From Candidatus Jorgensenbacteria bacterium RIFCSPLOWO2_01_FULL_45_25b (lineage in GTDB: Bacteria; Patescibacteriota; Minisyncoccia; UBA6257; GWB1-50-10): 57,984 nt of DNA. This document shows, piece by piece, positions 2,411 to 42,628 of this stretch (its first letter is position 1; each line of letters begins with the position of its first letter). The position numbers and the translations under genes are program-made. Location of the stretch: assembly GCA_001781035.1 (NCBI GenBank), contig MFKK01000037.1:1-57984 (forward strand), given 5' to 3'. The notes below the pieces were generated by a model that saw only the letters and a program-made list of their open reading frames with translations, did no database searches and had not been told where the DNA came from.

Positions 2411-2495
2411 GGAAGGGTGCCGGAGCGGTCTAACGGAACGGCTTGGAAAGCCGTGGCTCGAAAGGGCCTCGTGGGTTCGAATCCCACCCCTTCCG
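2411..2495 (+). tRNA. tRNA-Ser (anticodon GGA)
   Basis: Manual cloverleaf: acceptor GGAAGGG/CCCTTCC, 3-bp D stem, anticodon loop TTGGAAA, long variable arm GGCTCGAAAGGGCCTC, T arm GTGGG-TTCGAAT-CCCAC. Confidence 0.9.
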
Positions 2496-4968: not shown

Positions 4969-4970
4969 AG

Positions 4971-5783: not shown

Positions 5784-5895
5784 AGAGCGTCAAAAGCTGT
5801 GTTGCTTCTTCCATTGCCTGCTCATCGGAGATTTCGGTACCCTTCTCCTCTTTCCAAATTGCTTTGAACTCTTGTAATGCTTTATCGGAAGTCAT
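5704..5895 (-). CDS. Small acidic hypothetical protein
   Basis: 63-aa ORF in an operon context. Its start overlaps the upstream stop (5892-5895). Confidence 0.4.
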   Translation of the reverse strand: MTSDKALQEFKAIWKEEKGTEISDEQAMEEATQLLTLFDAIYKPIKKSWLNDDDNGKHRQHSE

Positions 5896-6155
5896 CGCTC
5901 GTATATCCGCGCCTTTAATGTTTTGAGTTGGTTGAAGAACGCTTGCGGCTCAACCCGTAAATCTCCTCGCCAGTACGCATTCACTCCTTCTTGCAGTCCA
6001 GCGGAGTTTTGAAAGATGAAGACCGACCGTGTGGGGCTTACTCGCTCCATTTCTTCAACGACAAAGCCAGAAACGCAAAGAGCCGCAGTCAACGAAAGGT
6101 CTGCGGTTCGAAAATCTTTGTTGTTCTGGTTCATCGTCATAGTTTGGGTAGCCAA
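5892..6155 (-). CDS. DUF5659-like small protein
   Basis: The pattern TADLSLTAALCVSGF...FIFQNS...FFNQLKTLKARI matches my memory of DUF5659, which is common in CPR and phage elements. Confidence 0.6.
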   Translation of the reverse strand: MATQTMTMNQNNKDFRTADLSLTAALCVSGFVVEEMERVSPTRSVFIFQNSAGLQEGVNAYWRGDLRVEPQAFFNQLKTLKARIYER

Positions 6156-6216
6156 AATAAAAACAAGCTACGTTTTCAGCGTAGCTGTTACAAAAAGAGC
6201 TGTCGTTTCTATCCTG

Positions 6217-6933
6217 TTAGTTCAGTGTCTTTCTTGCTCCTGCATTCCGTTTCTTGTCCTTGCTTTCTGTTTTTGGCAAGGCATTGAGTTGCTGACGCAG
6301 TTTTACTTCATCCACTTGAAGCTCTTTCAAATCGGCATCAGTAAGACTATTTCTGAACTCGACCGCTTTAATTGATGCGTTTGGGAAGAATGCTCTTTTG
6401 AGTTCTCCCTTAAAGCCCAAGTCGGCGATAATCTGCGCAAACTTTTTGGCTATATCCAATTTCGCAGCCCGCAATGCCTCCCTGGTTATTGTTGTATTCG
6501 GGTGTTCAATTGCAAACAAGATGAAGTCGTGATTTTCAGAAGCAAAGTTTGGCTTGCCGACAATGTACTTATCATTCACGATAACCTCTCGCGTTTTGGT
6601 AAGACACACAAGGTATTTCGGCTTCGCAGACTCCAAAAACCTTTCCAGCCTTTGCCTATCAATCGAGTAAGTCCAAACTGCCCGCGGGTGCGTCCGTGTA
6701 GCGTAAAGCAATCGTGAACGCGTAGATTGCGGCTTTTCCTCTTCGTACTGGAGTTTCTTGCGCTGAATCACTCCGCTTTTGCCCAACTCTGTAACAGCCC
6801 AAAGCAAGCCCTGTTCTGATAGGTCTGGTTTGAGTAAAGAGTCCCAATAGAACTCCACATCACCGTCCGCCGCATTCTTGTATTGGAGCGCATTTGTAAT
6901 AAGTTGAATAACCGCTCGAAGTTCTTTTGTCAT
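6217..6933 (-). CDS. Hypothetical protein
   Basis: ORF 6217-7104 trimmed to ATG 6933. The longer form overlaps the convergent-looking HTH gene and leaves no promoter space. Confidence 0.5.
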   Translation of the reverse strand: MTKELRAVIQLITNALQYKNAADGDVEFYWDSLLKPDLSEQGLLWAVTELGKSGVIQRKKLQYEEEKPQSTRSRLLYATRTHPRAVWTYSIDRQRLERFLESAKPKYLVCLTKTREVIVNDKYIVGKPNFASENHDFILFAIEHPNTTITREALRAAKLDIAKKFAQIIADLGFKGELKRAFFPNASIKAVEFRNSLTDADLKELQVDEVKLRQQLNALPKTESKDKKRNAGARKTLN

Positions 6934-7026
6934 ATCATTGTCATTTGAGTCGGCCACTGCCCTGTCAAAAGTTGCCCGATTCTTAATTGAAGTGTAGAAT
7001 AAAGTTATTAGTGAGTCAAAACTTTT

Positions 7027-7209
7027 ATGATAAAGACTTACACACTGCAAGACCTGGAAAAGATACTCGGCGTCAAGGAGCGGACGCTCTTTCGGTATAT
7101 TCAAAAGGGCTGGCTCAAAGGGTCAAAGCGCGGCAAATGGCGCTTTACCGACCAGGACATAAGGGACTTCCTCAAACACGGAAGAGATGACAGTCTAAAA
7201 GCGAAGTGA
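7027..7209 (+). CDS. Excisionase/MerR-type helix-turn-helix protein
   Basis: YTLQDLEKILGVKERTLFRYIQKGWLKGSKRGKWRFTDQDIRDFL is the typical Xis-family HTH pattern. Confidence 0.7.
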   Translation: MIKTYTLQDLEKILGVKERTLFRYIQKGWLKGSKRGKWRFTDQDIRDFLKHGRDDSLKAK

Positions 7210-7230
7210 GTAGCCTCAAACAAAAGAACT

Positions 7231-10200
7231 ATGCCAAAACTTCACGGAGTATTTATCGGAATAGACCGCTATGCTTCACCAGCGATAAACTGGCTTTCTT
7301 GTGCGAGAAGAGACGCGACTGCGCTCCACGCTCTTTTCGCTGACAACCTGCCAGGCGATTTGAAGCTACTGACTGATAAAGACGCCACTCGTTCAACTCT
7401 TGAGAAAGAACTAAAAAGTCTTTCGCAATGCGCTCCCGATGACATCGTGGTTTTTGCTTTTTCTGGACACGGCACAGAGACTCACGAGCTGGTAACGTAT
7501 GATACTGATAGGGCAAAGCTCTCGGCAACAACTATTTCCCTGAACCAATTAGGAGAACATTTTTCCAAGATACCTGCGCGTCGGCTTATCTGTATTCTTG
7601 ACTGCTGTTTCTCTGGCGGGATGGGAGCGAAAGCATTGCAGGTGGACGTTGTGCCCCGTGATATACCTTCGGGCGAAGAGTTGTTGAAACAATTATCTGG
7701 AGACGGAAGAGTAATCTTGACTGCATCGCTTGCGACAGAAAAGGCGTGGGAACACCAGAAACTCGGACACGGATTACTTACCCACTACCTGTTAGAAGCA
7801 TTGCAGGGGGCGGAAGAAGTACGCAAGAGCGGCAAGGTTGGTCTCTACAAGCTACTTGATTATGTAACAACCAAAGTAATAGATTCAGCTAAAATCTTCG
7901 GAGAAGAACAACACCCAGTATTACTTGGACAAATCAAGGAAGAAATAACGCTTCCGATTTTCAAACCAGGAAAACTTTATAAGGAAGCATTCCCCGAAAG
8001 AGATACAAGAAAAGTTACCCCCGACGTTCAATCGCTGTCTGCGTTTGGCTTCCCCGACGACCTTCTCAAAGCCTGGGCAGGCTCCTCAATAACCACACTG
8101 AATCAATTACAGGTGGACGCCATCAATGAGTTTAAGGTGCTCGATGGAGAGCACCTTGTTGTCTCTGCGCCCACCTCCGCTGGTAAAACTCTCATCGGTG
8201 AATTGGCTGCTTTGCAGGGCGTCATAGAAAGAAAACGTGCGCTCTTTTTATTGCCACTAAAGGCACTGGTAAATGATAAGTTGAGACATTTTGAGGAAAC
8301 ATATGGAGCGTTTGGATTACGGACTATACGAGCAACTGGAGAGAGCACCAGCGATGACATTTTGCCCTTGATGCGCGGGCAATACGATATTTGTTTGATG
8401 ACATATGAAAAGTTTTCAGCAATGATACTCGGCAGTCCCCACATACTCGACCAGGTAAGCACGATAGTGGTTGACGAGGTACAGATGATTGCCGACAAGT
8501 CTCGTGGCGTCAATTTGGAGTTCATTCTCACTCTTCTACGAATGCGACGGAAGCAAGGCATTGAGCCACAAGTAATCGCGTTATCTGCTGTGATTGGGGA
8601 TACGAATGGTTTTGAGAGGTGGTTGGGCGCGAGATTGCTACGACGCACCGAGCGCCCCGTACCATTAGACGAAGGTATTGTCAGATTGGATGGTACTTTC
8701 CGCTATATCGAATCTGATACGGGTAAAGAAAAGACCGTGCAGTCAGCACAAACACAATTCAGGAAAGGTAGCGGACAAGATGTCATCATTCCGCTTGTAG
8801 GAAAATTGGTCAAAGACGGCAAAAGCGTCATCGTGTTCAGGGAAACCAAGTCAGAAGCACAAGCGTGCGCACTTTACTTGGCTCGAAATCTGGGCTTACC
8901 GCCTGCTCAAGTCGCAGTGGATAATCTTCCGAACACAGACCCGTCTATTTCTTCACAAAAGCTACGAGAAACATTGAATGGTGGCGTAGCATTTCACATT
9001 TCTGACTTGGATGCAGAAGAGAGAAGACTGATAGAAGAGCAGTTTCGCGCCTCATCCTCCGCACTAAAAGTTATTGCTGCAACGACAACGCTGGCGATGG
9101 GAGTGAACACACCCACAGAGGCAGTTATTATCGCGGGATTATCCCATCCTGGAGACGTGCCATATTCTGTTGCGGAATATAAGAACATTGCGGGAAGAGC
9201 TGGGCGACTCGGTTATACAACACGTGGTTCCTCATTCCTTGTCGCTCTCACTCCGAGTGAGGAACATACGCTTTGGACGAACTACATACAAGCGAATCCA
9301 GAAGATTTACATTCAAAGTTCTTTGCTGACAATACCGACCCTCGTTCGCTGGTAATAAGAGTGCTGGTAGCCGTTCGTTCAAGGCGAGGGCTTACCGCTG
9401 ATGAGATTGTGGAGTTTTTGGAAGAGAGCTTCGGTTCTTTCCAGGAAAAGATAAAGAATCCTGCTTGGGCCTGGGATAAAAACCAAATCACGGCAGCAAT
9501 TGAAGAACTGCGTACTCATCGGCTCATCGAACAAGATAAAGATGGTTTCTACCATCCAACTCCACTTGGAAGACTGGCTGGTGAATCTGGTTTGGAAGTA
9601 GAATCAGTATTGCGAGTCGTCAGTGCACTACAAGGAATCCAGCAGGCTGATATTAGCGACCCAGCACTTATCGCTCTGACCCAAGTTACTGTTGAACTTG
9701 ACCAGGTTTTATTCCCGCTCAACAAAAGAAGTACACAGAAGGAGCCTCAAACTTGGATGACAGAAGTTAGGAATCAAAGAATACCTGGGAACATCATCAA
9801 CGCATTCCATCGTTCTATCCAAGACCAAACTGATGCGACACGACGGGCTAAAAAGGCAGTGGCCTGTCTCTTGTGGATTACAGATAAACCACTGGTAGAA
9901 ATCGAAAATGTGTTGATGCAGTTTGACCGTGCAGACACTGCTGCTGGCGCCATAAGAAGCGTGAGTGCCAGAGTTTGTGATGTTTTATCCACAGTTGCCA
10001 GAATCGCTGAACTACTCAATCCAGGATTTGATTTGGCTGCTCGTGTCGAGCGATTGTTGGTGCGACTTGAAATCGGCATCCCAGCAGGGGTAGTAGAACT
10101 GGGCAGTATCTTCGGTAGGGTTTTCAATCGCGGTGATTATCTCTGTTTAATGAAAAACGGAATCACAACTAAAGAGGCATTTGAAGCCGCAAAAGAGGAT

Positions 10201-10326
10201 GCACTTTTGCAGTGTTTAGAAAACAATCGGGAAAAGCTCGCGGCAGCAAAAGTGAGGCTTGAAGAATACGAGCGAGAGGAAAAGCCGATACCTGGCTCCC
10301 CAATTCTTCCAGAATACGAAGGATAA
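7231..10326 (+). CDS. Caspase-like (peptidase C14) domain fused to Ski2/Hel308-like SF2 helicase
   Basis: C14 dyad motifs FAFSGHG and ILDCCFSGG. Helicase motifs APTSAGKT, LPLKAL, TYEKF, VDEVQ, LSAV, ATTTLAMGVNTP and AGRAGRLG. Confidence 0.85.
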   Translation: MPKLHGVFIGIDRYASPAINWLSCARRDATALHALFADNLPGDLKLLTDKDATRSTLEKELKSLSQCAPDDIVVFAFSGHGTETHELVTYDTDRAKLSATTISLNQLGEHFSKIPARRLICILDCCFSGGMGAKALQVDVVPRDIPSGEELLKQLSGDGRVILTASLATEKAWEHQKLGHGLLTHYLLEALQGAEEVRKSGKVGLYKLLDYVTTKVIDSAKIFGEEQHPVLLGQIKEEITLPIFKPGKLYKEAFPERDTRKVTPDVQSLSAFGFPDDLLKAWAGSSITTLNQLQVDAINEFKVLDGEHLVVSAPTSAGKTLIGELAALQGVIERKRALFLLPLKALVNDKLRHFEETYGAFGLRTIRATGESTSDDILPLMRGQYDICLMTYEKFSAMILGSPHILDQVSTIVVDEVQMIADKSRGVNLEFILTLLRMRRKQGIEPQVIALSAVIGDTNGFERWLGARLLRRTERPVPLDEGIVRLDGTFRYIESDTGKEKTVQSAQTQFRKGSGQDVIIPLVGKLVKDGKSVIVFRETKSEAQACALYLARNLGLPPAQVAVDNLPNTDPSISSQKLRETLNGGVAFHISDLDAEERRLIEEQFRASSSALKVIAATTTLAMGVNTPTEAVIIAGLSHPGDVPYSVAEYKNIAGRAGRLGYTTRGSSFLVALTPSEEHTLWTNYIQANPEDLHSKFFADNTDPRSLVIRVLVAVRSRRGLTADEIVEFLEESFGSFQEKIKNPAWAWDKNQITAAIEELRTHRLIEQDKDGFYHPTPLGRLAGESGLEVESVLRVVSALQGIQQADISDPALIALTQVTVELDQVLFPLNKRSTQKEPQTWMTEVRNQRIPGNIINAFHRSIQDQTDATRRAKKAVACLLWITDKPLVEIENVLMQFDRADTAAGAIRSVSARVCDVLSTVARIAELLNPGFDLAARVERLLVRLEIGIPAGVVELGSIFGRVFNRGDYLCLMKNGITTKEAFEAAKEDALLQCLENNREKLAAAKVRLEEYEREEKPIPGSPILPEYEG

Positions 10327-10388
10327 AAAGGTTCCCAGGCAAAAAGCATCAACTTGAAGGCCACGAAGAGTTCAAACCATAACATTTT

Positions 10389-10898
10389 ATGGATGTAACT
10401 TATATAAAACATAGACTTGATTTATATGTCGGCTCCATTCAATACGGTGTAGGTAATTGCAAAAACGCATACGCATACCTCAAACAAAAGAATGATGAGC
10501 TGAATGAAGCGTGGCGCAATGGTACGACGCACAGTCTCAACGAATTGGGGCATCTCGATAAGGTTTTCAAAGATTACCTGATTTTGAAAATTGCGGGTCT
10601 CTTTGACAAACGTGGCGATACGCTATCGCTTTTTAGTTTGCAGAAGTTTCTCCAAAACAATCTGCCCGATAGTGAGGGCTTATTTGCACCTGGCTTTGTG
10701 GAGATTCAAAATAAGTACCAGGACACAATCAAGAAAGTCGTGAAAGTACGACATAAAGCTGTTGCACACACGAGCGATGATTTCCCCGACAACATTCTTT
10801 ACACGCAGGACTTATTGGCAATGCCGATAATGGAGTTTCTGAAAGACGTTGAAAACCTTGCTGCGCAGGTTGGCACAATCACATTTCCAGTGAGGTAG
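10389..10898 (+). CDS. AbiU2-like HEPN-domain protein (putative RNase)
   Basis: LKIAGLFDK...KVRHKAVAHTSDD fits the Rx4-6H HEPN motif. Same strand, 62 nt after the helicase fusion. Confidence 0.5.
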   Translation: MDVTYIKHRLDLYVGSIQYGVGNCKNAYAYLKQKNDELNEAWRNGTTHSLNELGHLDKVFKDYLILKIAGLFDKRGDTLSLFSLQKFLQNNLPDSEGLFAPGFVEIQNKYQDTIKKVVKVRHKAVAHTSDDFPDNILYTQDLLAMPIMEFLKDVENLAAQVGTITFPVR

Positions 10899-15518: not shown

Positions 15519-15563
15519 AATATTGGGGATGTCCGACATCCGGCGGGATGACGGACATCCTAA
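15519..15563 (+). repeat. 45-nt hairpin/mini-ORF repeat, copy A
   Basis: aatattggggatgtccgacatccggcgggatgacggacatcctaa. It differs from 16781-16825 at 2 positions and has the 9-bp stem ggatgtccg/cggacatcc. Confidence 0.8.
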
Positions 15564-16542: not shown

Positions 16543-16608
16543 CGTGTGCGGTTTCTCGTTGCCTCGGGTTTTTATCCCGAGGCATACTTTTTGAAATTAA
16601 AGTAAAAA

Positions 16609-16705
16609 TGTTACCCTTCAAACCCCGTAAAGGACGGAAAGTCGCTTTCAGCGACCTCGTCCTACGGGGCAGGCTTCGCATGGGGAATAATATTTTATAT
16701 ATAAT
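16609..16705 (+). repeat. REP/MITE-like element, copy a
   Basis: Shares the 5' end gtta-cccttcaa-ccccg and the 3' end ggggaataatatttta with 21493-21587. The internal hairpin is ccccgtaaaggacg...cgtcctacgggg. Confidence 0.7.
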
Positions 16706-16780: not shown

Positions 16781-16825
16781 AATATTGGGGATGTCCGACA
16801 TTCTGCGGGATGACGGACATCCTAA
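16781..16825 (+). repeat. 45-nt hairpin/mini-ORF repeat, copy B
   Basis: aatattggggatgtccgacattctgcgggatgacggacatcctaa. Confidence 0.8.
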
Positions 16826-18142: not shown

Positions 18143-18212
18143 GCATGCCTTCCCTTCGACTCGGCTTAGGGTAAACTGCTCGGACAATAACCGAATTTCG
18201 TAATTCACAGCG
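18143..18212 (+). repeat. REP/MITE-like element, copy d
   Basis: ccttcccttcgactcggcttaggg...aataaccgaatttcgtaattcacag. Confidence 0.65.
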
Positions 18213-18986: not shown

Positions 18987-19872
18987 CAATTATATCGTTC
19001 GGAATGTCATATCAGAAAAGCCGTTTGAGTGGTCGCTTTCTGGCGGCGCGGTTTCTAGTTTTTCTTTACGCTGGGGAAGTTCGCCTGAAAATTTGCAGTA
19101 TCGCAAGGATGGAATTATCGGCACCTCAATCGCTATGTACGGACTTAATACTTCGTCAACTTGTTATTGGCAGGTTATTGGCGTGAACGGGTCAAGTACC
19201 ATATTTGGCAACATTCAATCATTTACCACCGCTCCCGTATTTACCTACTATTTGCCCTTTAACGAAAACTCGGGAACCGTTACCCGTGATTCCACGCTCG
19301 GCACTACCGCGACTCTTTACGGAGGAGCCCGCTTCTCCACCTTCTGTCCCGAGGGAAGCTGTTTGAATTTCACATCAAGCACCACTGCCTACGCCTCCAT
19401 ACCCACAACCTCAACCCTTATCGGTTTTCGCGACATTACTCTCCAGGCTTGGGTCTTCCGCAGAGCCGTATCACCCCGCACTCATGTTCGCGTTGTTTCC
19501 AAAGATTATGACTACTTCCTCGGCTTCTCGGGAGCGGGATCAAATCGTCTTGCCGTTGATTCCGGAGGAGGCGGAGGATGGCAGGGACTTACAACCGCAA
19601 CTCGCGATCTTCCTCTCGGAAGATGGGTTCACATCGCCTACACCTATTCTTCCTCCACGAATCGTTTGTACTATGACGGAGAGCTTGTCGAAGAGCAGGC
19701 GAAGACGAGAACCTTCGGACCAGGAACCCAGCCTCTTACCATCTCCGGACCAACCTTCGCGTTCAATGACCCCTTTGACGGGCTTGTTGATGAGGTGAAG
19801 ATTTCTCCTTTCGCGAAGACGGGAGCGGAGATACGGGCGGAGGTGTTAACTAAAACTCCTCCAATGCCTTAG
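18934..19872 (+). CDS. LamG/concanavalin-like domain protein, start uncertain
   Basis: ITLQAWVF..., LYYDGELV and DGLVDEVKIS are LamG-type motifs. Confidence 0.6.
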   Translation: MPRRLKNTRGGRGGWENNNYIVRNVISEKPFEWSLSGGAVSSFSLRWGSSPENLQYRKDGIIGTSIAMYGLNTSSTCYWQVIGVNGSSTIFGNIQSFTTAPVFTYYLPFNENSGTVTRDSTLGTTATLYGGARFSTFCPEGSCLNFTSSTTAYASIPTTSTLIGFRDITLQAWVFRRAVSPRTHVRVVSKDYDYFLGFSGAGSNRLAVDSGGGGGWQGLTTATRDLPLGRWVHIAYTYSSSTNRLYYDGELVEEQAKTRTFGPGTQPLTISGPTFAFNDPFDGLVDEVKISPFAKTGAEIRAEVLTKTPPMP

Positions 19873-19935
19873 TTTTGTTTTTCTTAATATTTTTATACGT
19901 TGACTTTTGGAAGCATCTCTCTCATTATTTTGTGA

Positions 19936-20234
19936 CGGGCTGTAGCCCGTTAGAGGCGCTCATTTCCATGTTTTATGTTTATGTGTTACAAAGCATTAAG
20001 GACGGTCAATGGTATACTGGTTATGCCAGTGATTTGAAGCGAAGAATCAAAGAACATAATTTAGGGCGGAATTTTTCGACTAAACACAGAATACCGTTTT
20101 GTCTCATTTATTATGAAGCTTGCTTGTCTGAAAAGGACGCAAAGACTCGTGAGAAATATTTGAAATCTGGAATGGGTAAAAGATATTTGAAGAATAGAAT
20201 GAGGTATTTTTTGAGCACCTCTAACGGGCTGTAG
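19936..20234 (+). mobile_element. GIY-YIG mini-cassette with terminal inverted repeats, inserted at the tRNA-Pro 5' end
   Basis: The 10-nt sequence cgggctgtag is present at 19936-19945 and 20225-20234. There is a 17/18-bp inverted repeat between 19944-19961 and 20213-20230. Confidence 0.45.
19968..20234 (+). CDS. GIY-YIG nuclease family protein (COG2827-like)
   Basis: FYVYVLQSIKDGQWYTGYASDLKRRIKEHN...KDAKTREKYLKSGMGK. The stop TAG lies inside tRNA-Pro. Confidence 0.8.
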   Translation: MFYVYVLQSIKDGQWYTGYASDLKRRIKEHNLGRNFSTKHRIPFCLIYYEACLSEKDAKTREKYLKSGMGKRYLKNRMRYFLSTSNGL

Positions 20235-20298
20235 TATACCGGTAGTACGTCTGCTTTGGGAGCAGATAGACCGGGTTCGATTCCCGGCAGCCCGACCA
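20225..20298 (+). tRNA. tRNA-Pro (anticodon TGG), CCA encoded
   Basis: Acceptor CGGGCTG/CAGCCCG, anticodon stem TCTGC/GCAGA, loop TTTGGGA, T arm CCGGG-TTCGATT-CCCGG, then ACCA. Confidence 0.85.
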
Positions 20299-20740: not shown

Positions 20741-21211
20741 ATGAATAAAACTATAGCTATTATTGTTGCGGTTGTTGTTGTGGGATTCGGCGCGTGGTAT
20801 TTCATGAAGAGCGATTATTCGCTGAAGAAGGATGAGATGCAGGCGACCAGCACTCCCGAGGAGGCGGTCGTGAGTGAGAATGGTGCCGTGATGGGAGAGA
20901 AGCAGGTTGTTGTTTACACCGATGAGGGCTATGTTCCTTCTTCCCTTATCATCAAGGCGGGGGAGGTTGTGGAATTTAGAAATGAATCGTCGCGTGAGAC
21001 TTGGCCGGCGTCCGCGAAGCATCCGACGCATACCGGGTATCCGGGAACGGATATAAAGAAGTGCGATACGGCAGAGGCGGGTGAGATGTTTGATTCCTGC
21101 GGAGGCATCGCGCCCGGAGCGTCATGGACATTTACCTTTAACGAGAAGGAGGAATGGGGGTATCATGACCACTTGGACGCGAAGAAGTTTGGAAAGATTA
21201 TTGTTGAGTAG
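20741..21211 (+). CDS. Cupredoxin-like domain protein with N-terminal anchor
   Basis: IIKAGEVVEFRNES...HDHLDAKKFGKIIVE. Confidence 0.6.
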   Translation: MNKTIAIIVAVVVVGFGAWYFMKSDYSLKKDEMQATSTPEEAVVSENGAVMGEKQVVVYTDEGYVPSSLIIKAGEVVEFRNESSRETWPASAKHPTHTGYPGTDIKKCDTAEAGEMFDSCGGIAPGASWTFTFNEKEEWGYHDHLDAKKFGKIIVE

Positions 21212-21250
21212 AATCTAGAATCTAGAAGCTAGAAGCTAGAAGCTAGGATA
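21209..21250 (+). repeat. 7-bp CTAGAAK tandem array beginning at the stop codon
   Basis: tagaatc tagaatc tagaagc tagaagc tagaagc taggata. Confidence 0.9.
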
Positions 21251-21292: not shown

Positions 21293-21416
21293 TTTGAATT
21301 ACGAAACTCCATTATTGCCTGAGCCCACGTCGAAGGCATTGCCTACGCGATAAATCTAAAATGTCGCCCTTCGACAAGCTCAGGGCATAATATTTAGGCA
21401 GTTTCGTAATTCAAGG
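21293..21416. repeat. Inverted pair of REP/MITE-like elements (c1 reverse, c2 forward)
   Basis: tgaattacgaaa...attattgcctgagc...cgtcgaagg faces cccttcgacaagctcagggcataatattt...tttcgtaattcaagg. Confidence 0.7.
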
Positions 21417-21492
21417 CTCATCGGGCTCTTTTTCTTTTGCTTGTCAATGGTGGTTGTTTCTTTGAGTTTGAGGTTTAATGGTTACAAGTAAT

Positions 21493-21587
21493 GTAACCCT
21501 TCAACCCCGAAGAATCCTTCGACAAGCTCAAGAAATACGGAGCAGGCAAACTCGGGGAATAATATTTTATCATTTTGTAATTCACAG
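21493..21587 (+). repeat. REP/MITE-like element, copy b
   Basis: gtaacccttcaaccccgaagaatccttcgacaagctcaagaaatacggagcaggcaaactcggggaataatatttt...ttttgtaattcacag. Confidence 0.75.
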
Positions 21588-21595
21588 ATTTATAT

Positions 21596-23317
21596 ATGGC
21601 GGGAGAGGTAGACATCATAAAAGAGAAAATTGATATTGTGGATTTTTTGCGGTCATATATTGACCTGCATCCCGCGGGGAAGAATTTTAAGGCGATTTGT
21701 CCGTTTCATTCGGAGAAGACGGCTTCTTTTGTTGTTTCTCCCGAACGGAGGATGTGGCACTGCTTTGGTTCGTGCGGGGAGGGGGGGGATATTTTTAAAT
21801 TTTTAATGAAGCATGAGAATTTGGAGTTTTATGAAGCCTTGAAAGTTTTGGCCGAACGGGCAGGCGTTCCTCTTCGCGCGCTTGACCCGCAGAAACAGAA
21901 GGAGTTTGGAGTTCTTTATGATATGCACGAGACGGCTAAGGATTTTTATCGGAAACAGCTTTCTTCGCAGACAGAGGCTTTGAGTTATTTGAGAGGAAGA
22001 GGACTTACGGATGAGACGATGGAGGAGTTCGGACTCGGATTTTCTCCGGGGGGAGAGGCGCTTACGCTTTTTCTTTTGCAGTCGGGATATGATATGTCGA
22101 ATATTGTTCGTGGGGGGCTCGCGCAGAAGAACGCGCAAGGGCTTCATCGGGACAAGTTTTATCGGAGGATTATGTTTCCGATTTATAATTCCATGGGAAA
22201 GGTTGTCGCTTTTACCGGACGGATTCTGCCGGAGAATGGAAGCCCTTCGACAAGCTCAGGAGATATACCGAAATATTTGAATAGTCCCGAGACGCCGATT
22301 TTTAACAAGTCGCATATTTTATATGGATTTCATGTTTCAAAGAATCATATCGCGAAATCGCGAACGGCTTTTCTTGTGGAGGGGCAGATGGATGTTTTGA
22401 TGTCGTGGCAGTCGGGAATACAAAATGTTGTCGCCGTTTCCGGAACGGGGCTTACTACGCATCATCTTGAGCGATTACGAAGACTCGCTGATACGCTTGT
22501 GTTGAGTTTTGATAACGATACTGCTGGATTGAAGGCGATGGAGCGTTCGCTTGACCTTTTTGCCGATTTTGATTTTTACGCGCGGGTTGCTTCTCTTGGA
22601 GAGCATAAGGACCCCGCTGACGCGGCGAAGGCGGATAAGGGATTTTTGGAGAGGGCTGTTTTGGAGGCGAGACCCGCCTTCTCGATTCTTTTTGAGTCGT
22701 ATTTCAAGGGGATTTCGTTTTCCGATGTTGCTTTGAAGAAACGGCTTGTGCGCCGTTCTTTGGAGAAGATTAGGGCTCTCAAGAGTTCTACCGAGCGGGA
22801 TATTTGGACGAAGGAGCTTTCAGGTGTTTCAGGCATTTCTGAATCGGGGCTTCTTGCCGAATTTGCTTCCATGTCCTTGCCCGCCTCACCCGTTTCTCAC
22901 GCGCCGGATTCTGTTTTTACCCCAACACTTCTTTCCCGCCCCCGACGAATTGAGCTTATCGCGAAGAGGCTGGTCTCGCTCGCGCTTCTTCGCGCTCCGT
23001 TTTTTGAAAGACTTATGGAGCATCGGGAGTGGCTTCCCAAGGAATATTGTAGTATTCTTGAGGAGCCTCAAGGAGTCCCTGCCACCGAGCTTAGTATGTT
23101 GGGAAGCTATGAGTTTGGGGGGGCGAAGGAGGAGGAGCTTCTTAAGGAATTTGATGACCTTTTGAGTTATATTCAGCTTGAGTTTTTGAAACAGAGAAGG
23201 AACGAGCTTCGTTTGAAGATTCGCGAGTGCGAGCGGAAGGGGACGAACGAGGAGTCTCAAACGTTTCTCGCGGAGTTTCATTCTCTTTCAAGGGAGATGG
23301 ACAAGTTAAAACGATAA
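21596..23317 (+). CDS. dnaG: DNA primase
   Basis: Zinc ribbon CPFHSEKTASF..WHCFGCG, the PKYLNSPET motif and the Toprim motif EGQMDV...DNDTAG. Confidence 0.9.
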   Translation: MAGEVDIIKEKIDIVDFLRSYIDLHPAGKNFKAICPFHSEKTASFVVSPERRMWHCFGSCGEGGDIFKFLMKHENLEFYEALKVLAERAGVPLRALDPQKQKEFGVLYDMHETAKDFYRKQLSSQTEALSYLRGRGLTDETMEEFGLGFSPGGEALTLFLLQSGYDMSNIVRGGLAQKNAQGLHRDKFYRRIMFPIYNSMGKVVAFTGRILPENGSPSTSSGDIPKYLNSPETPIFNKSHILYGFHVSKNHIAKSRTAFLVEGQMDVLMSWQSGIQNVVAVSGTGLTTHHLERLRRLADTLVLSFDNDTAGLKAMERSLDLFADFDFYARVASLGEHKDPADAAKADKGFLERAVLEARPAFSILFESYFKGISFSDVALKKRLVRRSLEKIRALKSSTERDIWTKELSGVSGISESGLLAEFASMSLPASPVSHAPDSVFTPTLLSRPRRIELIAKRLVSLALLRAPFFERLMEHREWLPKEYCSILEEPQGVPATELSMLGSYEFGGAKEEELLKEFDDLLSYIQLEFLKQRRNELRLKIRECERKGTNEESQTFLAEFHSLSREMDKLKR

Positions 23318-23426: not shown

Positions 23427-24695
23427 ATGGCAAAAAAAGAGAAAAAAATTATAAAAAAAGGAAAAGGTAAAAAGACTCTGAAGCGTCAAATTCCCTCAAA
23501 GAAGGCGGTAAGCAGGGTGCTTATTCGCACCGGTCGTTCTTCCCGGGGCGTTCGGCCTCCTCAAAAAAATGCTTCAACGAAAAAGGAGCTGAAGCTTACG
23601 AAAAAGGACCAGCTTATCAAGGAGTATGAGGAAAGGCTGAATGATTTGGTGTATCGCGGACGAGCGAGAGGGTTTGTTACTGATGCCGAAGTATTGAGTT
23701 TCTTTCCCCGTATTGAGGAGCACCTTCCTTTTTTAGAGATGGTTTACGCGCGGCTTGACCGCGAGGGTATTCGCGTAAAGGAATCCTCTCCTTTAATGAA
23801 GGTTATTAAAGATAAGGAGGAGATTACCGCGAAGGAATTGAAGGACGCCACTCGGATTGAACATGATTTGCCGGATGCCGTGCAGATGTATCTGAAAGAA
23901 ATAGGACGAACGGCTCTCTTAACCTCCAAAGACGAGAAGGAGCTTGCAAAACGGGCGGAGGGAGGCAATGAGGAGGCGCGGAAGAGGCTTATTCAGGCAA
24001 ACTTGCGGCTTGTTGTTTCTATCGCGAAGCGGTATGTGAACCGCAGTCCGCACTTGAGTATTTTGGATTTAATTCAAGAAGGAAACATCGGGCTTTCTCG
24101 CGCGGTTGATAAATTTGATTATCGGAAGGGATTTAAGTTTTCAACATACGCGACGTGGTGGATTCGGCAGGCGATTACGCGCGCTCTCGCGGATTATTCG
24201 CGCACAATTCGCATTCCGGTGCATATGGTTGAGACGATTACAAAGTATACGCAAATTAAGCGTCACTTGATGCAGGAGCTTGGGCGCGAGCCGTTGCCGG
24301 AGGAGGTTGCCGCGGAGATGGGAGTTGATGTGGAGAAGGTGCACTACATCCAAAAAATTTCACAGGAGGTTATTTCTTTGGAATCTCCGATCGGGGATGA
24401 TGACGAGGACTCAACCCTTTCTGACTTTATTAAGGATGAGCAGAGCCTGTCTCCCGACCAGCTCGCGAGCCACGCGCTTTTGAAGGATCAGATTCACGAG
24501 GTGATGAGAGACCTTACCGAACGCGAGCAGAAAATTCTCGCCATGCGGTTTGGATTGGAAGATGGGATTTCACACACGCTTGAGGAGGTGGGGAAGGTGT
24601 TTGGTGTTACGAGAGAGCGTATTCGGCAGATTGAGGCAAAGGCGTTGGATAAGATTCGGGGGAATGAGAAGGTGAAGAAGCTGGAGGGATACTGA
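23427..24695 (+). CDS. rpoD: RNA polymerase sigma-70 factor
   Basis: Region 2 [37 protein letters not shown] and region 4 [20 protein letters not shown]. Confidence 0.9.
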
Positions 24696-24740: not shown

Positions 24741-26573
24741 ATGAAGTCATCGGAAATTAGGAGGAAATTTTTGAAGTTTTTTGAGGAGCGGGGGCATGTT
24801 ATAGTGCCTTCATCTTCTTTGGTGCCGGACGACCCTTCGGTGCTTTTGACGACCGCCGGAATGCAGCAGTTTAAGAGGTATTACACCGGTGAGGCGGACG
24901 CGATGAAAGATTTCGGTTCAAAAAGCACGGTGTCAATTCAGAAAAGTTTTCGCACTTCAGATATTGACGAGGTGGGCGACGAGAGGCACCTCACTTTTTT
25001 TGAGATGATGGGGAATTTTAGTTTTGGTGGATACTTCAAAGAAGAAGCGATTACGTATGCTTTTGATTTCATCACAAAGGAAATGGGGTTGCTGATTTCT
25101 TACGTGACGGTGTTTCAAGGTAGTCCTTCGACCCCAAAGAATCCTTCGACAGGTTCAGGAAATACGGAGCAGGCAAGTTCAGGAAATAACATTCCAAAAG
25201 ATACTGAATCCAAAGGGATTTGGGAGAGCTTGGGCGTGAAAGATGTAAGAGAGGAGGGAATGGATGATGTGTTTTGGGGGCCGACGGGGAGTTCGGGACC
25301 GTGCGGGCCGACGACGGAGATTTATTGCAAAAACGGGGCGGGGCAGGATATTGAGGTTTGGAATATCGTTTTTAACGAATTTTTTTGTACCGGTTCGCGC
25401 GAAGAGCTTTTGGCGGGGAGAGCTGAATTAAAACCCTTGCCGACGAAGGGTATTGATACGGGAATGGGGCTGGAGCGTTTGGCGATGTGCGCGCAAAAAA
25501 CAAAGACCATTTTTGAGACGGATTTGTTTGGCGGTTTTTTGAAAAAAGAGCCGATATCGGGTGTTACGGAACGCGTAAGAAGAATTGTTTTAGACCACGC
25601 GCGAGCGATTGCTTTTTTAATTTCTGACGGCGTGGAACCCTCCAATAAGGGCGCCGGTTATATTTTGAGGCGGCTTGTGAGACGAGCGATGGTGTATGAA
25701 TATTTAGTGAATCAAATTGAGTTTAAGCTTCCGATTGTGTTTACCGCGGTTCATGAAACATACGCGCGATGGTATCCTGAATTAAGCAAAGAGGAAATTC
25801 TTAACATTTTTGAGGGAGAAAAAGAACGTTTTTTGATTTCTTTGGAACAGGGATTAAAGGAGTTAAAGAAGTTTGAGAAGGTGGATGTGAAATCGGCGTT
25901 TTTTCTCTTCCAAAGTTTTGGCATTCCTTATGAGGTGATAAAGGAACTTGGCGGGGAGAGAACGATTCATTTGAAGCGCGAGGATTTTGAAAAAGAATTT
26001 GAAGAGCATCAAGAAATTTCCCGCGCGGGACTTGAGAAGAAGTTTGGCGGGCACGGTCTTATTTTGGATACGGGAGAGTTGAAGGCGGGGGATGTGGAGG
26101 AATTAAGGAATGCGACTCGGTTGCATACGACGACGCATTTGCTTCAGCAGGCGTTGCGGGACGTGCTCGGAGATTCCGTTCATCAGATGGGTTCGGATGT
26201 TACATCGGAGCGGACGCGGTTTGATTTTTCTTTTGCCAGAAAGCTTACGTCGGATGAGATTGGGCGCGTAGAGAAAATTGTGAATAAAAAGATTGAGGAG
26301 AATCTTCCGGTTGGTTGTGTAGAGATGTCAAAAGAAGAGGCGGAGAGAAGCGGCGCTTTGCACTTTTTTAAGGAAAAGTATCCCGACAAGGTTAAGGTAT
26401 ATTATGTCGGAGAGACGCTTTTGGACGCGTACAGCAAGGAGTTTTGCGGAGGGCCCCACGTGGGTCGTACCGAAGAAATTGGAAGAGTAAAAATTAGTAA
26501 GGAGGAGGCGGTTGCTTCAGGCGTGAGAAGGATGCGGGTAGTGTTGACTAAGGACGCAGAATTTAGAAGCTAG
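24741..26573 (+). CDS. alaS: Alanine--tRNA ligase, short form without the C-Ala domain
   Basis: FFEERGH, TTAGMQQFK, HLTFFEMMGNFSFGGYFK, and the editing-domain motifs HTTTHLL and CGGPHV. Confidence 0.9.
   Translation: MKSSEIRRKFLKFFEERGHVIVPSSSLVPDDPSVLLTTAGMQQFKRYYTGEADAMKDFGSKSTVSIQKSFRTSDIDEVGDERHLTFFEMMGNFSFGGYFKEEAITYAFDFITKEMGLLISYVTVFQGSPSTPKNPSTGSGNTEQASSGNNIPKDTESKGIWESLGVKDVREEGMDDVFWGPTGSSGPCGPTTEIYCKNGAGQDIEVWNIVFNEFFCTGSREELLAGRAELKPLPTKGIDTGMGLERLAMCAQKTKTIFETDLFGGFLKKEPISGVTERVRRIVLDHARAIAFLISDGVEPSNKGAGYILRRLVRRAMVYEYLVNQIEFKLPIVFTAVHETYARWYPELSKEEILNIFEGEKERFLISLEQGLKELKKFEKVDVKSAFFLFQSFGIPYEVIKELGGERTIHLKREDFEKEFEEHQEISRAGLEKKFGGHGLILDTGELKAGDVEELRNATRLHTTTHLLQQALRDVLGDSVHQMGSDVTSERTRFDFSFARKLTSDEIGRVEKIVNKKIEENLPVGCVEMSKEEAERSGALHFFKEKYPDKVKVYYVGETLLDAYSKEFCGGPHVGRTEEIGRVKISKEEAVASGVRRMRVVLTKDAEFRS
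25121..25196 (+). repeat. REP/MITE-like element, copy e, in frame inside alaS
   Basis: About 76 nt with about 12 mismatches to 21493-21568. It is translated as GSPSTPKNPSTGSGNTEQASSGNNIP. Confidence 0.75.
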
Positions 26574-26600
26574 AATCTAGAAACTAGAATCTAGGATATA
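26564..26600 (+). repeat. 7-bp CTAGAAK tandem array containing the alaS stop codon
   Basis: tagaagc tagaatc tagaaac tagaatc taggata. Confidence 0.9.
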
Positions 26601-26683: not shown

Positions 26684-28426
26684 ATGAAATCCTCAAAGCA
26701 AAAAATTTTTCTTGACCAGCAGGTTGATATTACAACAATCGCGAAACATCTTTCGCGCGTACCAGAGAAGGAGATTATATTTAATTTTCCGCGGGGAGCG
26801 CGTTTTGCTTCCTCGCTTGATAATTTTCGCGCGTTAAAAAAGAGGGCGGATTCGCTGGGGAAGAAGGTGTTAATAGAATCAATAGACGAACGCGCTCTGG
26901 AGATGGCTTCTTCCACTGGTTTTGACACCTTAAATCCTATTTTTCAGACCGACCCCAAAACCGTTCGGGATATTATTCCGAAAACGACCTCCAAACCGGA
27001 AGGCTTTAGAACTCTTCCTGTACGTCTTTCTTCGCGAACTTCGTCTAGTGTTTCTTCCGAATCGCAGGAGAAGGCTTCTTTCTGGCGTAAGAAGGCATCG
27101 CCCGCGCCTCTTCCCACAAACAGGCTTCCTTCGTTTCTTTCCGATGACGCTGTAACAGACTCGGAATCCTCCGCTCCTGTTGTTTCAAAAAAGCCCTCAA
27201 AACCTCTTTTGTTTCCGAAGAACGCGGATTCAGGTTTTGGGATCCCTTCAAAAAAGACTGGTCGTTTTCGTGGCGGAAAGTTTGCGATGTCTTTTTTCCT
27301 GCTCGGCGGTTTGATTTTTTTGGGAGTTGGTGTTTGGGTGCTTGTCGCGGTTCTCCCAAAAGCCACAGTTAAGCTTGTTTTTAAGGAGTATTTAATGCCG
27401 TTTCAGTATCAGTTGAGAGTTGATACCGGTGTTTCAACATCAAGTATTCAGGAGGGAGCGCTGGTTCTTCCCGGAGAGCTATTGAAGGCGAGCAAGAATC
27501 TTCAGATGAGTTTTCCAGCGAATGGCACGGATAAAGTTGAGGTAAAAGCGAAGGGTAGGCTTACCATTTATAACGCCTTTAGTTCCGAGGCGCAGGCGCT
27601 TGTGGAACGTACCCGATTTGAAACTTCGGACGGAAGGGTGTTTCGTTTGATTGAGGGGGTTACCGTTCCGGGCGCGAAAATTGTTGACGGAAAGATTGAG
27701 CCGTCAACACTTGAGGTTTCCGTTCAAGCCGACCAAGCTGGAGTGGAGTATAACATTCCCGCTGTTCCAAAGTTTACTATTCCCGGATTTAAGGGAACTC
27801 CGCGATTTGAGGGATTTTATGGCGTTTCCAAAGAGCCGATGACGGGAGGATTTGTAGGTGTTCAGGCGGTCGCGACGGATGAGGATGTTGTTGCTGCGAA
27901 AAAGAGTCTTCGGGAGACGCTCTTATCTTCTCTAAAAGGGGAGCTTGGAATTTTGATGAAAGAGAATTATGACGTGCTGGAAGGTTCAACGGCATTTGAT
28001 GTTGTTAAGGAGGAAGTGGAACAGCCAGCGCCGCTTGAAAAAACATTTAAGTTGTATATGGAGGCGCGTTTTCGTCAGTTTGTGTTTGACCGCACGTCTC
28101 TTGAAGACGCTATTACCAAAGACGCGATACGGGAATTGGACGCGGGCTTCCTTCTTGCGGTTAAGAAAATTTCTGTTCAGTATTTTGACCCCCTGCTTGA
28201 TTTTTCAAAAGAGCAGTTGCAGGTGAGAGCGGAGGGAGAGATTGCGTTTCGCGCCGATATAAACGTTGGCGATTTAAAAAAGGAGTTTTTTGGAAAGGAT
28301 GCCGAATCAGCGAAGAAGATTATTTTTCAGCTTCCCGGGCTTGAGCGGGCAAATCTTTCCCTGAAACCTTTTTGGGTAGGCAGGTTTCCGAAGAACGAGA
28401 AGAAGGTAGAGATAGAGATAGAATAG
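26684..28426 (+). CDS. Hypothetical membrane protein
   Basis: 580-aa ORF with a Ser-rich linker and a single TM segment (FFLLGGLIFLGVGVWVLVAVL). No family recognised. Confidence 0.65.
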   Translation: MKSSKQKIFLDQQVDITTIAKHLSRVPEKEIIFNFPRGARFASSLDNFRALKKRADSLGKKVLIESIDERALEMASSTGFDTLNPIFQTDPKTVRDIIPKTTSKPEGFRTLPVRLSSRTSSSVSSESQEKASFWRKKASPAPLPTNRLPSFLSDDAVTDSESSAPVVSKKPSKPLLFPKNADSGFGIPSKKTGRFRGGKFAMSFFLLGGLIFLGVGVWVLVAVLPKATVKLVFKEYLMPFQYQLRVDTGVSTSSIQEGALVLPGELLKASKNLQMSFPANGTDKVEVKAKGRLTIYNAFSSEAQALVERTRFETSDGRVFRLIEGVTVPGAKIVDGKIEPSTLEVSVQADQAGVEYNIPAVPKFTIPGFKGTPRFEGFYGVSKEPMTGGFVGVQAVATDEDVVAAKKSLRETLLSSLKGELGILMKENYDVLEGSTAFDVVKEEVEQPAPLEKTFKLYMEARFRQFVFDRTSLEDAITKDAIRELDAGFLLAVKKISVQYFDPLLDFSKEQLQVRAEGEIAFRADINVGDLKKEFFGKDAESAKKIIFQLPGLERANLSLKPFWVGRFPKNEKKVEIEIE

Positions 28427-28487
28427 AAGCTAGAAGCTAGAAAATAGAAGCTAGAAGCTAGAAAATAGAAGCTAGAAGCTAAAATAA
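28424..28487 (+). repeat. 7-bp CTAGAAG array with 21-bp higher-order period, beginning at the stop codon
   Basis: (tagaagc tagaagc tagaaaa) repeated about 3 times. Confidence 0.9.
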
Positions 28488-30603: not shown

Positions 30604-31293
30604 ATGAGAATTCAAAAATATCTTTCGGAGCAGGGCGTTATGTCCCGTCGGGAGGCGGAGGAGAGTATGCGGAAAGGGTTTGTTACGTGCAACGGGAAGG
30701 TTGTTCGTGATTTAGGAAGGCAGATTGACCCGGAACGCGACCGTATTCGCGTTCTTTCTTCCTCTTCTTCCGCCGAACGAAAAATGACAATTCTTGTAAA
30801 TAAGCCCCGCGGAGTTGTCTCGTCAAAAAATCCAAAAGAAGGCTTTACGGTTTTCCAAATGCTTCCTCAATTTGCAAACCTTCATGTCGTGGGACGCCTT
30901 GATAAGGAGAGCGAGGGAGCTCTTTTGCTTTCCAACGACGGGCCTGTTACGGCTTCCGTTACATCCGAGAAGCATCTTATTGAAAAAGAATATGAGGTTT
31001 GGATTCGGGAAGTTGTGCGTCCCGGGCGGATTCGGAAGATGGAGGAGGGGGTGCTTTTGGAAGACGGAAGAACATTGCCCGCGCGAGTTTCGCGAATTGA
31101 CGACCACGCGTTTCGGATTGTCTTGCGGGAGGGGAGGAAGCATCAGATTCGAAGAATGGCAGCCGTGCTTATGCTTACCGTTACCCGCCTGAAGCGTATT
31201 CGTATTGGAGACCTTACTCTCAAAGGCTTGAAGGAGGGGGGGTTTCGCGCGTTGTCTTTTGCCGAAGTTCAGGCGTTTAAACGGAGAAGCTAG
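30604..31293 (+). CDS. Pseudouridine synthase, RsuA/RluB family
   Basis: S4 domain MRIQKYLSEQGVMSRREAE and the catalytic motif VGRLDKESEGALLLSNDG. Confidence 0.85.
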   Translation: MRIQKYLSEQGVMSRREAEESMRKGFVTCNGKVVRDLGRQIDPERDRIRVLSSSSSAERKMTILVNKPRGVVSSKNPKEGFTVFQMLPQFANLHVVGRLDKESEGALLLSNDGPVTASVTSEKHLIEKEYEVWIREVVRPGRIRKMEEGVLLEDGRTLPARVSRIDDHAFRIVLREGRKHQIRRMAAVLMLTVTRLKRIRIGDLTLKGLKEGGFRALSFAEVQAFKRRS

Positions 31294-31325
31294 AAAATAG
31301 AAGCTAGAAGCTAGAATCTAGGATT
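31286..31325 (+). repeat. 7-bp CTAGAAG array filling the gap between convergent genes
   Basis: gaagc tagaaaa tagaagc tagaagc tagaatc taggatt. Confidence 0.9.
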
Positions 31326-40290: not shown

Positions 40291-40326
40291 AAACATTCCA
40301 GCATTCTCAAGAATGTTGGAATGTTT
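40291..40326. repeat. Palindrome family P3, copy 1
   Basis: aaacattccagcattctcaagaatgttggaatgttt. Confidence 0.8.
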
Positions 40327-42481: not shown

Positions 42482-42558
42482 ACGCGTTTTTCTATTCTAC
42501 CATGTATAGCAAGATATGTCTCGGGGGTCTAGTGAAATTAAAAAAGAAAACATAAAAA

Positions 42559-42598
42559 ACGTTGCACTTTTTCCACGATCGTGGAAAAAGTGCAACGT
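42559..42598 (-). terminator. P1 palindrome, terminator-like on the minus strand
   Basis: acgttgcactttttccacgatcgtggaaaaagtgcaacgt is preceded on the plus strand by an A-run, which is a T-run on the minus strand. Confidence 0.6.
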
Positions 42599-42628
42599 AA
42601 GTTGCGCAGCAATATCTTGCTCTGTCCA

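Follow-up and report, generated by a model that had tools for sequence, protein, structure and literature searches.

How does a sequence that lies between genes come to sit in frame inside essential genes of the same genome? The question is raised by a contig of Candidatus Jorgensenbacteria bacterium RIFCSPLOWO2_01_FULL_45_25b (MFKK01000037.1, positions 1–57,984, a stretch that we call the window). A repeat found between its genes also runs through alaS, the alanyl-tRNA synthetase (AlaRS) gene (24741–26573, + strand, 610 aa; Pfam tRNA-synt_2c 7.9e-92 and tRNA_SAD), as a long insertion, and through the primase gene dnaG (21596–23317, + strand, 573 aa; Pfam Zn_ribbon_DnaG, DNAG_N, Toprim) as a short copy. 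From the sequence comparisons below, we put at about 0.78 the probability that a small interspersed repeat has been copied into both genes and is translated there as the AlaS segment and the DnaG heptapeptide. The original prediction had likewise proposed a non-autonomous repeat that entered essential coding sequences without breaking the frame, and the analysis supports it: the AlaS insertion is lineage-specific and paralogous to an intergenic copy.

The repeat-derived segment of alaS (25117–25193, + strand) matches an intergenic copy upstream of dnaG (copy E, 21490–21566) without gaps: 64 of 77 positions are identical, with a blastn E-value of 8e-19 within the window. The match had been predicted, and it is significant when computed, but the predicted limits were 1–3 nt off and the mismatches number 13 rather than about 12. 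Twelve of these are transitions and one is a transversion, in both directions, which looks like ordinary divergence. The similarity reaches well past the short core, through non-core sequence. Within alaS, an inner core copy that matches the repeat pattern (CCTTCGACAGGTTCAGGAAATA, 25143–25164, + strand) is nested between an outer 5' half (CCTTCGAC, 25125–25132, + strand) and an outer 3' half (AAGTTCAGGAAATAAC, 25175–25190, + strand), and an internal 15-nt repeat (25150–25164 versus 25174–25188) is 93% identical. The inner core agrees with the consensus at 16 of 20 positions. The same nested layout recurs in the AlaS of another locus (L122) and in loci L004 and L059.

The alaS reading frame is uninterrupted across the repeat and reads VTVFQ-GSPSTPKNPSTGSGNTEQASSGNNIP-KDTESKGIWE, as had been translated before. 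The insertion proper covers ∼25125–25190, or residues 129–150 (PSTPKNPSTGSGNTEQASSGNN; 66 nt, 22 aa), a net gain of ∼20 aa over the canonical GS-D-VVPKD. Canonical AlaS proteins were expected to be short at this site, and they are. Among the 120 nearest homologues, VTVF-x-GS-D-VVPKDEES is the canonical sequence, ∼110 of them having nothing inserted; most close relatives are without the insert and have a loop of 2–3 residues, and homologue lengths are mostly 578–590 aa versus 610 aa here. Against solved AlaRS structures (PDB), the alignment splits into two blocks that leave query residues 126–152 unmatched, with one residue in their place. The closest syntenic relative (L121, 75.6% AlaS identity) has no such AlaS segment, nor does it have the three copies upstream of dnaG, where its intergenic region measures 122 nt versus 385 nt here. 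Among the homologues and structures compared, we found no distant orthologue with the same segment: sister lineages are empty or have a differently placed, independent core. The AlaS segment is thus, as predicted, a lineage-specific insertion. In an AlphaFold model (mean predicted local distance difference test score, pLDDT, 82.8), residues 126–154 form a coil between a strand (119–125) and a helix (155–163), and pLDDT falls below 50 for residues 136–147. The model follows the suggestion to map the insert onto a structure. On the reading preferred here, the insert would be a disordered loop of the catalytic domain without a required function.

The window genome belongs to the Patescibacteria (Candidate Phyla Radiation, CPR; Parcubacteria-type); its AlaS and DnaG find their best homologues under the names Uhrbacteria, Paceibacterota, Jorgensenbacteria, or "Patescibacteria group." In other CPR lineages, the core has entered the same AlaS loop independently. 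One case is L121, where a clean 24-nt block (TTTGA/CCCTTCGGCAGGCTCAGGGCAAGA/GGGG) interrupts a GAG codon that lies five codons upstream of the insertion site in the window. A clade formed by P0052, P0103, and P0045 reads GS-HST(S/G)SGQ-A, and relatives at 88–90% protein identity are empty; filled and empty alleles differ by a 20-mer in place of GC (net +18 nt), with 1–3 nt of possible microhomology at the junction. P0052 and P0103 count as one event because both belong to a single species, in which alaS is mosaic. In P0107, the loop holds a nested copy, and another copy lies close to the C-terminus. All core-like peptides caught by a motif scan of the 120 AlaS homologues lie in this single loop; the second P0107 copy was missed by the peptide scan and found by a DNA scan. 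A Nomurabacteria AlaS (L110) carries the core in a different loop.

Two other features of alaS deserve mention. Between L123 and L201, the flanking genes are ∼100% identical and the alaS interior is 45–90% identical, except for a 150-nt island of 100% identity around the insertion. We considered homing-like co-conversion for this island and rejected it, as both genomes come from a single species whose alaS is a recombination mosaic. In the window, tandem heptamers TAGAAGC/TAGAATC (5–8 copies; 21209–21246, 26558–26594, 28422–28481, and 31285–31321) follow four + strand genes, alaS included, starting right at the stop codon or past it, with a TAG in each unit.

The copy in dnaG is a single core unit (22242–22265, + strand), and the open reading frame (ORF) continues through it. 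It matches 21366–21389 at 22 of 24 positions (E 2e-4) and, at 22244–22263, agrees at 18 of 20 positions with the 20-mer CCTTCGACAAGCTCAGGGCA, a core that recurs across phyla (see below). The core encodes GSPSTSSGD, read (G)SPSTSSGD, just before PKYLNSPET, in line with the SPSTSSG given originally. The loop it occupies, in the polymerase domain, is 8–9 aa longer than in solved primases and spans 3–35 residues among CPR primases; an Uhrbacteria DnaG that is 40% identical has the exact core in the same loop. The core thus occupies a hypervariable loop, and a simple gain there is likely, if unproven. Aligning orthologues, as had been proposed, therefore gave a divided answer: the AlaS segment comes out as lineage-specific, but the DnaG loop is not clearly longer than in the nearest relatives.

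The remaining copies in the window are intergenic. Copy E (21490–21587, + strand), the closest paralogue of the alaS segment, has a 3' module, AATAATATTT...TTTTGTAATTCA, and ends 9 nt upstream of the dnaG start codon. Copy D (21363–21416, + strand) has the exact cross-phylum 20-mer (21368–21387), then TAATATTT and TTTCGTAATTCA. Copy C (21293–21340, − strand) reads CCTTCGAC-GTGG-GCTCAGGCAATAAT...TTTCGTAATTCA and is 81% identical over 37 nt (E 1e-5) to copy B (18146–18212, + strand), which lies directly upstream of the uppS start codon. Copy A (16607–16698, + strand) has the frame of copy E, 5' GTTACCCTTCAA and 3' CAGGC..GGGGAATAATATTTTAT, matching it over 19 nt at 89% and 36 nt at 81%; its inner cargo is a long perfect hairpin, and its RNA fold reaches −33 kcal/mol (z = −3.4). 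Pairwise E-values among the copies at 16.6, 18.1, and 21.3–21.4 kb range from 1e-5 to 5e-3, so the copies originally placed at 16609–16705, 18143–18212, 21293–21340 (reverse), and 21365–21416 are real relatives. The pattern CCTTCRAC..RGYTCRGG occurs five times in the window versus 0.03 expected, and the 3' module TTTCGTAATTCA occurs at four places (copies B, C, D, and E), only beside cores, versus 0.6 expected. The 3' module is missing from the alaS copy. At up to three mismatches, the 20-mer CCTTCGACAAGCTCAGGGCA is found at three places, exact at 21368–21387, with two mismatches in dnaG and with three in copy E (21516–21535), and none of 100 shuffles gave any 20-mer match at up to three mismatches. 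Every copy in the window, like the nested ones elsewhere, follows a common plan, 5' CCTTCGAC, a cargo of 0–50 nt, and (AA)GYTCAGGRCAA.., the cargo being absent in copy D and dnaG, 4–17 nt in copies C and B, a perfect hairpin in copy A, and a core unit in copy E and alaS. Two of the seven window copies are thus intragenic (alaS and dnaG), and the density is ∼1 copy per 10 kb. A core-like match at 19680–19692 was rejected as a copy, as it is native Laminin_G_3 coding sequence (GELVEE). Separately, an amino-acid-kinase gene is followed downstream by two tandem 25-nt units, GGATTyrrCAAkCTyACCACAGG (1365–1414), which resemble a diverged form of the core.

The core is not confined to this genome: many phyla share it, a point missed in the original prediction. 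We scanned one genome per GTDB species for the exact 20-mer (596 Gb on two strands) and assigned phyla from record titles. The scan found it in no fewer than 120 species-representative genomes, which belong to more than 15 phyla, where ∼1 match is expected by chance (596 Gb, two strands, /4^20). Among the matches listed are Acidobacteriota, Chloroflexota, several CPR lineages, Alpha-, Beta-, and Gammaproteobacteria, Verrucomicrobiota, and Lentisphaerota; also Planctomycetota, Bacteroidota, Ignavibacteria, Actinomycetota, Gemmatimonadota, and Chlamydiota; and Calditrichota, Eremiobacterota, Desulfobacterota-type lineages, Cyanobacteria, Saganbacteria, and Omnitrophota. Cultured isolates carry it too (Sphingomonas natans, Nostoc sp. 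CHAB 5844, Chakrabartia godavariana, and Sphingosinithalassobacter portus). Inverted pairs are seen in sphingomonads, and complete Sphingobium TomTYG megaplasmids hold 3–18 copies, in this form. E. coli gave no match in 20,395 records of 5,426 complete genomes (E up to 1, 11-base words); the unit is therefore widespread but not universal. The exact 20-mer was also present in Pseudomonas phage LIT1 and ∼65 relatives (L203, 601–620). There it appears to be native tail-fibre coding sequence read TFDKLRA, through which more distant LUZ7-type homologues align, and a rare coincidence rather than an insertion; we rejected a phage vector. A full-text literature search with the nucleotide core, its five translated peptides, and concept terms returned no description of the unit, although its coverage was incomplete and an earlier description is possible.

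What is conserved is a 24-nt unit, C-CCTTCGACAAGCTCAGGGCA-RGC. Across 117 loci, one instance each, information content is high at position −1 (C, 114/117) and at +1 to +3 (R-G-C) and drops to ∼0 bits beyond; the unit is sharply bounded at 24 nt and its flanks are unrelated. It forms tandem arrays with a 24-nt period (L023, L041, L061, and L066) and nested self-copies, with the nesting point GAC/AAG inside the unit. In one Pseudomonadota metagenome-assembled genome (MAG; L004, L036, and L059; GC 0.42), at least eight exact-core copies lie on three contigs within about a dozen core-like clusters, and the nested dimer [CCTTCGAC][CCTTCGAC AAGCTCAGGGCAAGC][AAGCTCAGGGAC] recurs. The unit can fold into a weak hairpin (∼−7 kcal/mol), NCCT[TCGACARGCTC]AGGN, with a 4–5-bp stem and a conserved 11-nt loop. 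The stem covaries, passing from CG to UA to GC at two pairs: we counted 36 compensatory cells versus 10.4 ± 2.8 in shuffles, none of 500 shuffles scored as high, and slid controls fell below the true stem.

Rfam scans (gathering and E-value) of the window and 28 loci matched no family for the unit and only two carriers, Acido-Lenti-1 and RNase P. In Acidobacteria, the unit is embedded in hairpin 1 of Acido-Lenti-1 (RF01687; L119, L007, and L092), and core-free copies of that RNA exist (L011). In Candidatus Nealsonbacteria (L080, 3154–3521), the antisense core forms the P12-region hairpin of bacterial RNase P RNA, GCCCUGAGCUUGUCGAAGGGU; the unit is tolerated also inside an essential structured RNA. 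By eye, the unit seemed to occupy a host hairpin's loop in every case, but the statistics were marginal (p = 0.04), and we rejected the idea as a general rule. No neighboring protein family is recurrent: when 2,272 ORFs from 120 loci were clustered all-against-all, the best family reached 5 of 120 loci.

How does the unit behave inside genes? In loci of low GC content, most of them CPR, the exact core is usually found well inside long ORFs. Hosts identified by Pfam are GyrB (interdomain linker), leucyl aminopeptidase (PepA), NusA (C-terminal tail), a beta-CASP/RNase J-like protein, FolD, PolX (thumb-PHP linker), the ATPase domain of a histidine kinase, and class II aldolase (FBA); acidobacterial leuS-like genes, recognized by eye from the flanking peptide, also carry it. 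At least 10 other CPR host genes read through the core in frame. Coding copies are in sense orientation in 11 of 12 cases; the twelfth sits on the border of an ORF. Among the 10 clearest cases, 8 are read in the PSTSSGQ frame and 2 as LRQAQGK, and every coding copy is a multiple of three in length and free of stops. Because five of the six frames of the unit are open, the frame bias is best explained, we infer, by selection for a hydrophilic, flexible peptide.

These observations suggest how the repeat may have reached its present sites. In this genome, the 24-nt unit has grown into 50–100-nt elements, 5' CCTTCGAC - variable cargo - GYTCAGGRCAATAAT..TTTCGTAATTCA, in which the cargo may be another unit. 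A nested two-unit paralogue of the copy just upstream of dnaG would have been copied into the strand–helix loop of the AlaS catalytic domain; a single unit lies in the hypervariable loop of the DnaG polymerase domain. In an essential gene, copies would presumably survive only where their length is a multiple of three, they are free of stops, and they fall in a permissive surface loop; such a filter would account for copies being in sense orientation and being read in the hydrophilic, flexible PSTSSG(Q) frame. Insertion may be a copying-in from another repeat copy, with no target-site duplication or linked transposase; the event might be directed by a hairpin or a single strand, or it might be a template switch primed by microhomology, and we give this route low confidence. 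Alleles bearing the insertion would then move between strains by homologous recombination.

Several points weigh against the translated-repeat reading. The alaS copy has no significant structure (RNA fold z = −0.4). An 18-mer that marks the long composite had no genuine match elsewhere, 36 metagenome matches being chance hits with unrelated flanks, and the 77-nt form may exist as two copies only (alaS and copy E). The five assemblies of the organism from other samples (described below) are clonal and offer no within-species presence/absence polymorphism that would point to recent movement, and both the copy count and the search for a trans-acting enzyme cover 58 kb of genome. Selection acting as a filter may not be enough to explain four insertions in one AlaS loop; there may be a target preference, several insertions coming after GAC or GGN-TCN. 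For DnaG, the loops of the nearest homologues are only 0–6 residues shorter, and that of P0126 (GDPSINSGEI) may carry a decayed homologue of the core; the core there may be a gain, a replacement, or of older ancestry.

Could the insertions instead be adaptive? Selection might have recruited the unit repeatedly as a useful flexible Ser/Thr/Gly linker, a modification site, or an mRNA hairpin. The same AlaS loop and the same DnaG loop are indeed occupied independently and repeatedly, the frame bias is strong (PSTSSGQ in 8 of 10), and a covarying stem means that the hairpin is constrained somewhere. Yet most close relatives do without the insert and keep a loop of 2–3 residues, filled and empty alleles stand side by side at 88–90% protein identity, and copies decay, as the 16/20 inner core of alaS illustrates; moreover, the modelled AlaS loop is disordered, and the unit also occurs in unrelated proteins, RNase P RNA, and intergenic DNA. 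We consider adaptation unlikely. The direction of copying might also be the reverse, with copy E derived from an alaS fragment by ectopic gene conversion or duplication. That the long composite is known in two copies only, 3.6 kb apart and in direct orientation, would fit, but the segment is absent from the AlaS of relatives and hence foreign to alaS either way. Copy E further has the family 3' module (AATAATATTT..TTTTGTAATTCA), shared with copies B, C, and D and missing from alaS, and copy A has the outer frame of E around a different cargo. A reversed direction is quite unlikely.

Two further accounts fare worse. If the segment were removed after transcription or translation, as an intron or intein would be, mature AlaRS would be canonical. 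Nothing supports this directly beyond the general knowledge that CPR genomes carry insertions in rRNA genes, whereas no Rfam family, self-splicing introns included, matches the region, 66 nt (22 aa) is far below intein size, and the coding copies are all stop-free multiples of three, which would be needless if they were spliced out; removal is very improbable. Native or coincidental similarity, from ancestral loop residues or chance, has precedents in core-like strings that are native coding sequence (GELVEE in the Laminin_G_3 ORF at 19680–19692 and FDKLRA in LIT1-like phage tail fibres). It is hardly credible for the copies here, because the 77-nt match has an E-value of 8e-19, no shuffle reproduced the core matches, and homologue alignments show an insertion, which already refutes it for alaS. 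Translated copies of an interspersed repeat therefore remain our preferred reading of the AlaS and DnaG segments.

A broader proposal can be made for the unit itself. The unit is discrete, enters L121 as a clean block, nests, and forms tandem arrays; no gene is linked to it in cis, and the alaS of one species is mosaic by recombination. Tentatively, and with rather more doubt than belief, we suggest that the 24-nt unit CCCTTCGACAAGCTCAGGGCARGC may be a distinct, extremely small insertional element that spreads within and between phyla, its sequence and hairpin constrained by a copying machinery. It would enter intergenic repeats, structural RNA genes (RNase P P12), and, in streamlined CPR genomes, essential protein genes as clean blocks without target duplication; in these protein genes it would seed new surface loops.

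The surroundings of the repeat were examined as well. The genes dnaG, rpoD (23427–24695, + strand), and alaS lie in a row on the + strand. Five independent assemblies of the same organism from other samples are at least 99.97% identical to the window over 14.7–36.6 kb; an assembly artefact therefore does not account for the repeat sequence. Three other samples yielded assemblies of this organism that stop at window position 20490 or 20737, pointing to a repeat or structural variant at that place. Nearby, a small GIY-YIG nuclease ORF (19875–20234) overlaps the start of tRNA-Pro (20225–20298). Pfam searches of the 58-kb window found no DDE or HUH transposase and no REP-associated tyrosine transposase (RAYT; REP, repetitive extragenic palindrome), and a RAYT is not a recurrent neighbor of the unit either. 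The window does hold a large serine recombinase beside tRNA-Ser, the small GIY-YIG protein, and the reverse transcriptase of a diversity-generating retroelement (DGR); nothing ties them to the repeat. The recombinase (2430–4130, − strand) and an HTH_36 protein belong to a region beside tRNA-Ser (2411–10898) that is likely an integrated element or defence island, with a caspase-DEAD helicase fusion (7231–10326) and an AbiU2-like HEPN protein (10389–10898). The DGR (48325–50994) comprises an RVT_1 reverse transcriptase (49846–50994), a template repeat (49426–49540), and a variable repeat (48945–49059) in the 3' end of ORF 48325–49077, with all mismatches at template adenines. We rejected the alaS segment as a DGR target, as differences between alaS and copy E are not confined to template adenines. 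Other repeats in the window are distinct: a palindromic family, CGCTGCAyTTyTTCCACGATCGTGGAArAAATGCAGCG (1554–1607, 2144–2197, 42557–42610, and 54798–54851), consists of near-perfect 38-nt palindromes with a REP- or terminator-like look, and two repeats occur in two copies each, a 34-nt palindrome (40292–40325 and 53230–53263; 97%) and a 45-nt direct repeat (15519–15563 and 16781–16825; 96%).

To our knowledge, in-frame colonization of essential genes by selfish repeats has so far been a textbook peculiarity of Rickettsia. The same phenomenon now appears in ultra-small CPR genomes, in AlaRS and primase here and in gyrase, NusA, PolX, an RNase J-like protein, and aldolase in relatives. Repeated insertion in the same loops would be a sequence-traceable source of the lineage-specific insertions that hamper the alignment and modelling of CPR proteins. 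An exact 20-mer within a 24-nt unit across more than 15 phyla, with no associated gene, breaks the rule that bacterial repeats are lineage-specific (PMC3184786). If a common copying mechanism is at work, this would be an unrecognized, very small kind of mobile DNA, testable in cultivable Sphingomonas and Sphingobium; if the unit is indeed an insertional element, no shorter mobile or templated DNA module would be known in bacteria, and it would also be a cross-phylum source of protein indels.

Which known system does the repeat resemble? It had been called REP- or MITE-like (MITEs being miniature transposable elements with inverted repeats), and this stands only in part: we found a short covarying hairpin but no terminal inverted repeats, target-site duplication, linked transposase, or unusually stable palindrome in alaS (z = −0.4). 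REPs are extragenic, specific to a species or genus, and mobilized by RAYT (Y1 HUH) transposases. The unit shares with REP/REPIN-RAYT systems a short hairpin, a covarying stem, single, inverted-pair, or clustered occurrence, and no evident target-site duplication. It differs in its 4–5-bp stem with a conserved 11-nt loop, as opposed to stem-dominated REP palindromes, and in that most CPR copies and 2 of the 7 window copies are inside genes. Assignment to the REPs is thus partial: the hairpin is there, extragenic confinement is not, and the window showed no RAYT.

In the Pasteurellaceae and Neisseriaceae, DNA uptake sequences (USS/DUS) measure 9–12 nt, are restricted to their family, and number thousands of copies; point mutation and uptake bias give rise to them, not the insertion of 24-nt blocks. 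They too are short, exact, over-represented motifs, tolerated in coding sequence with a frame or orientation bias and often arranged as terminator-like inverted pairs, but the unit goes in as a 24-nt block and reaches ∼1 copy per 10 kb here. Acido-Lenti-1 (RF01687) is a carrier of the unit and not the unit itself. Some bacterial MITEs and similar repeats (Correia/NEMIS, ERIC, RUP, and BOX) lie in genes, occasionally as in-frame ORF fusions (PMC3184786). Like them, the unit is non-autonomous, multi-copy, and occasionally in frame with ORFs, but it is several-fold shorter than any MITE. The repeat does not fit the definition of a MITE: the alaS and E copies have no terminal inverted repeats, the pairing in their folds being internal only, no parent insertion sequence was found in the window, and there was no target-site duplication at the junctions (TTTGA/24 nt/GGGG in L121, which restores a GAG codon; 20 nt for GC in the P0052 clade; GGTAGT/../ATTCCA in alaS).

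Repeat families of different bacteria commonly share structure rather than sequence (PMC3184786), which makes identity across phyla the most unusual feature of the unit. The closest known analogue appears to be the Rickettsia palindromic element (RPE). In the passages that PMC10969869 and PMC3184786 devote to them, RPEs (Ogata et al. 2000) are interspersed repeats found in frame inside many unrelated housekeeping ORFs, ∼100–150 bp long, confined to Rickettsia and relatives, described as having no transposase of their own, and thought to be tolerated where protein fold and function are undisturbed. The repeat described here is similarly interspersed, in frame in housekeeping ORFs, apparently read through, and without a linked transposase. 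Compared with RPEs by description, its unit is 24 nt, its composites measure 50–100 nt (∼66–77 nt in alaS), its peptide is PSTSSGQ-like, its host is a CPR/Patescibacteria lineage, and its core is common letter for letter to more than 15 phyla. The finding is a further variant of the phenomenon that RPEs exemplify, the selfish repeat inside genes.

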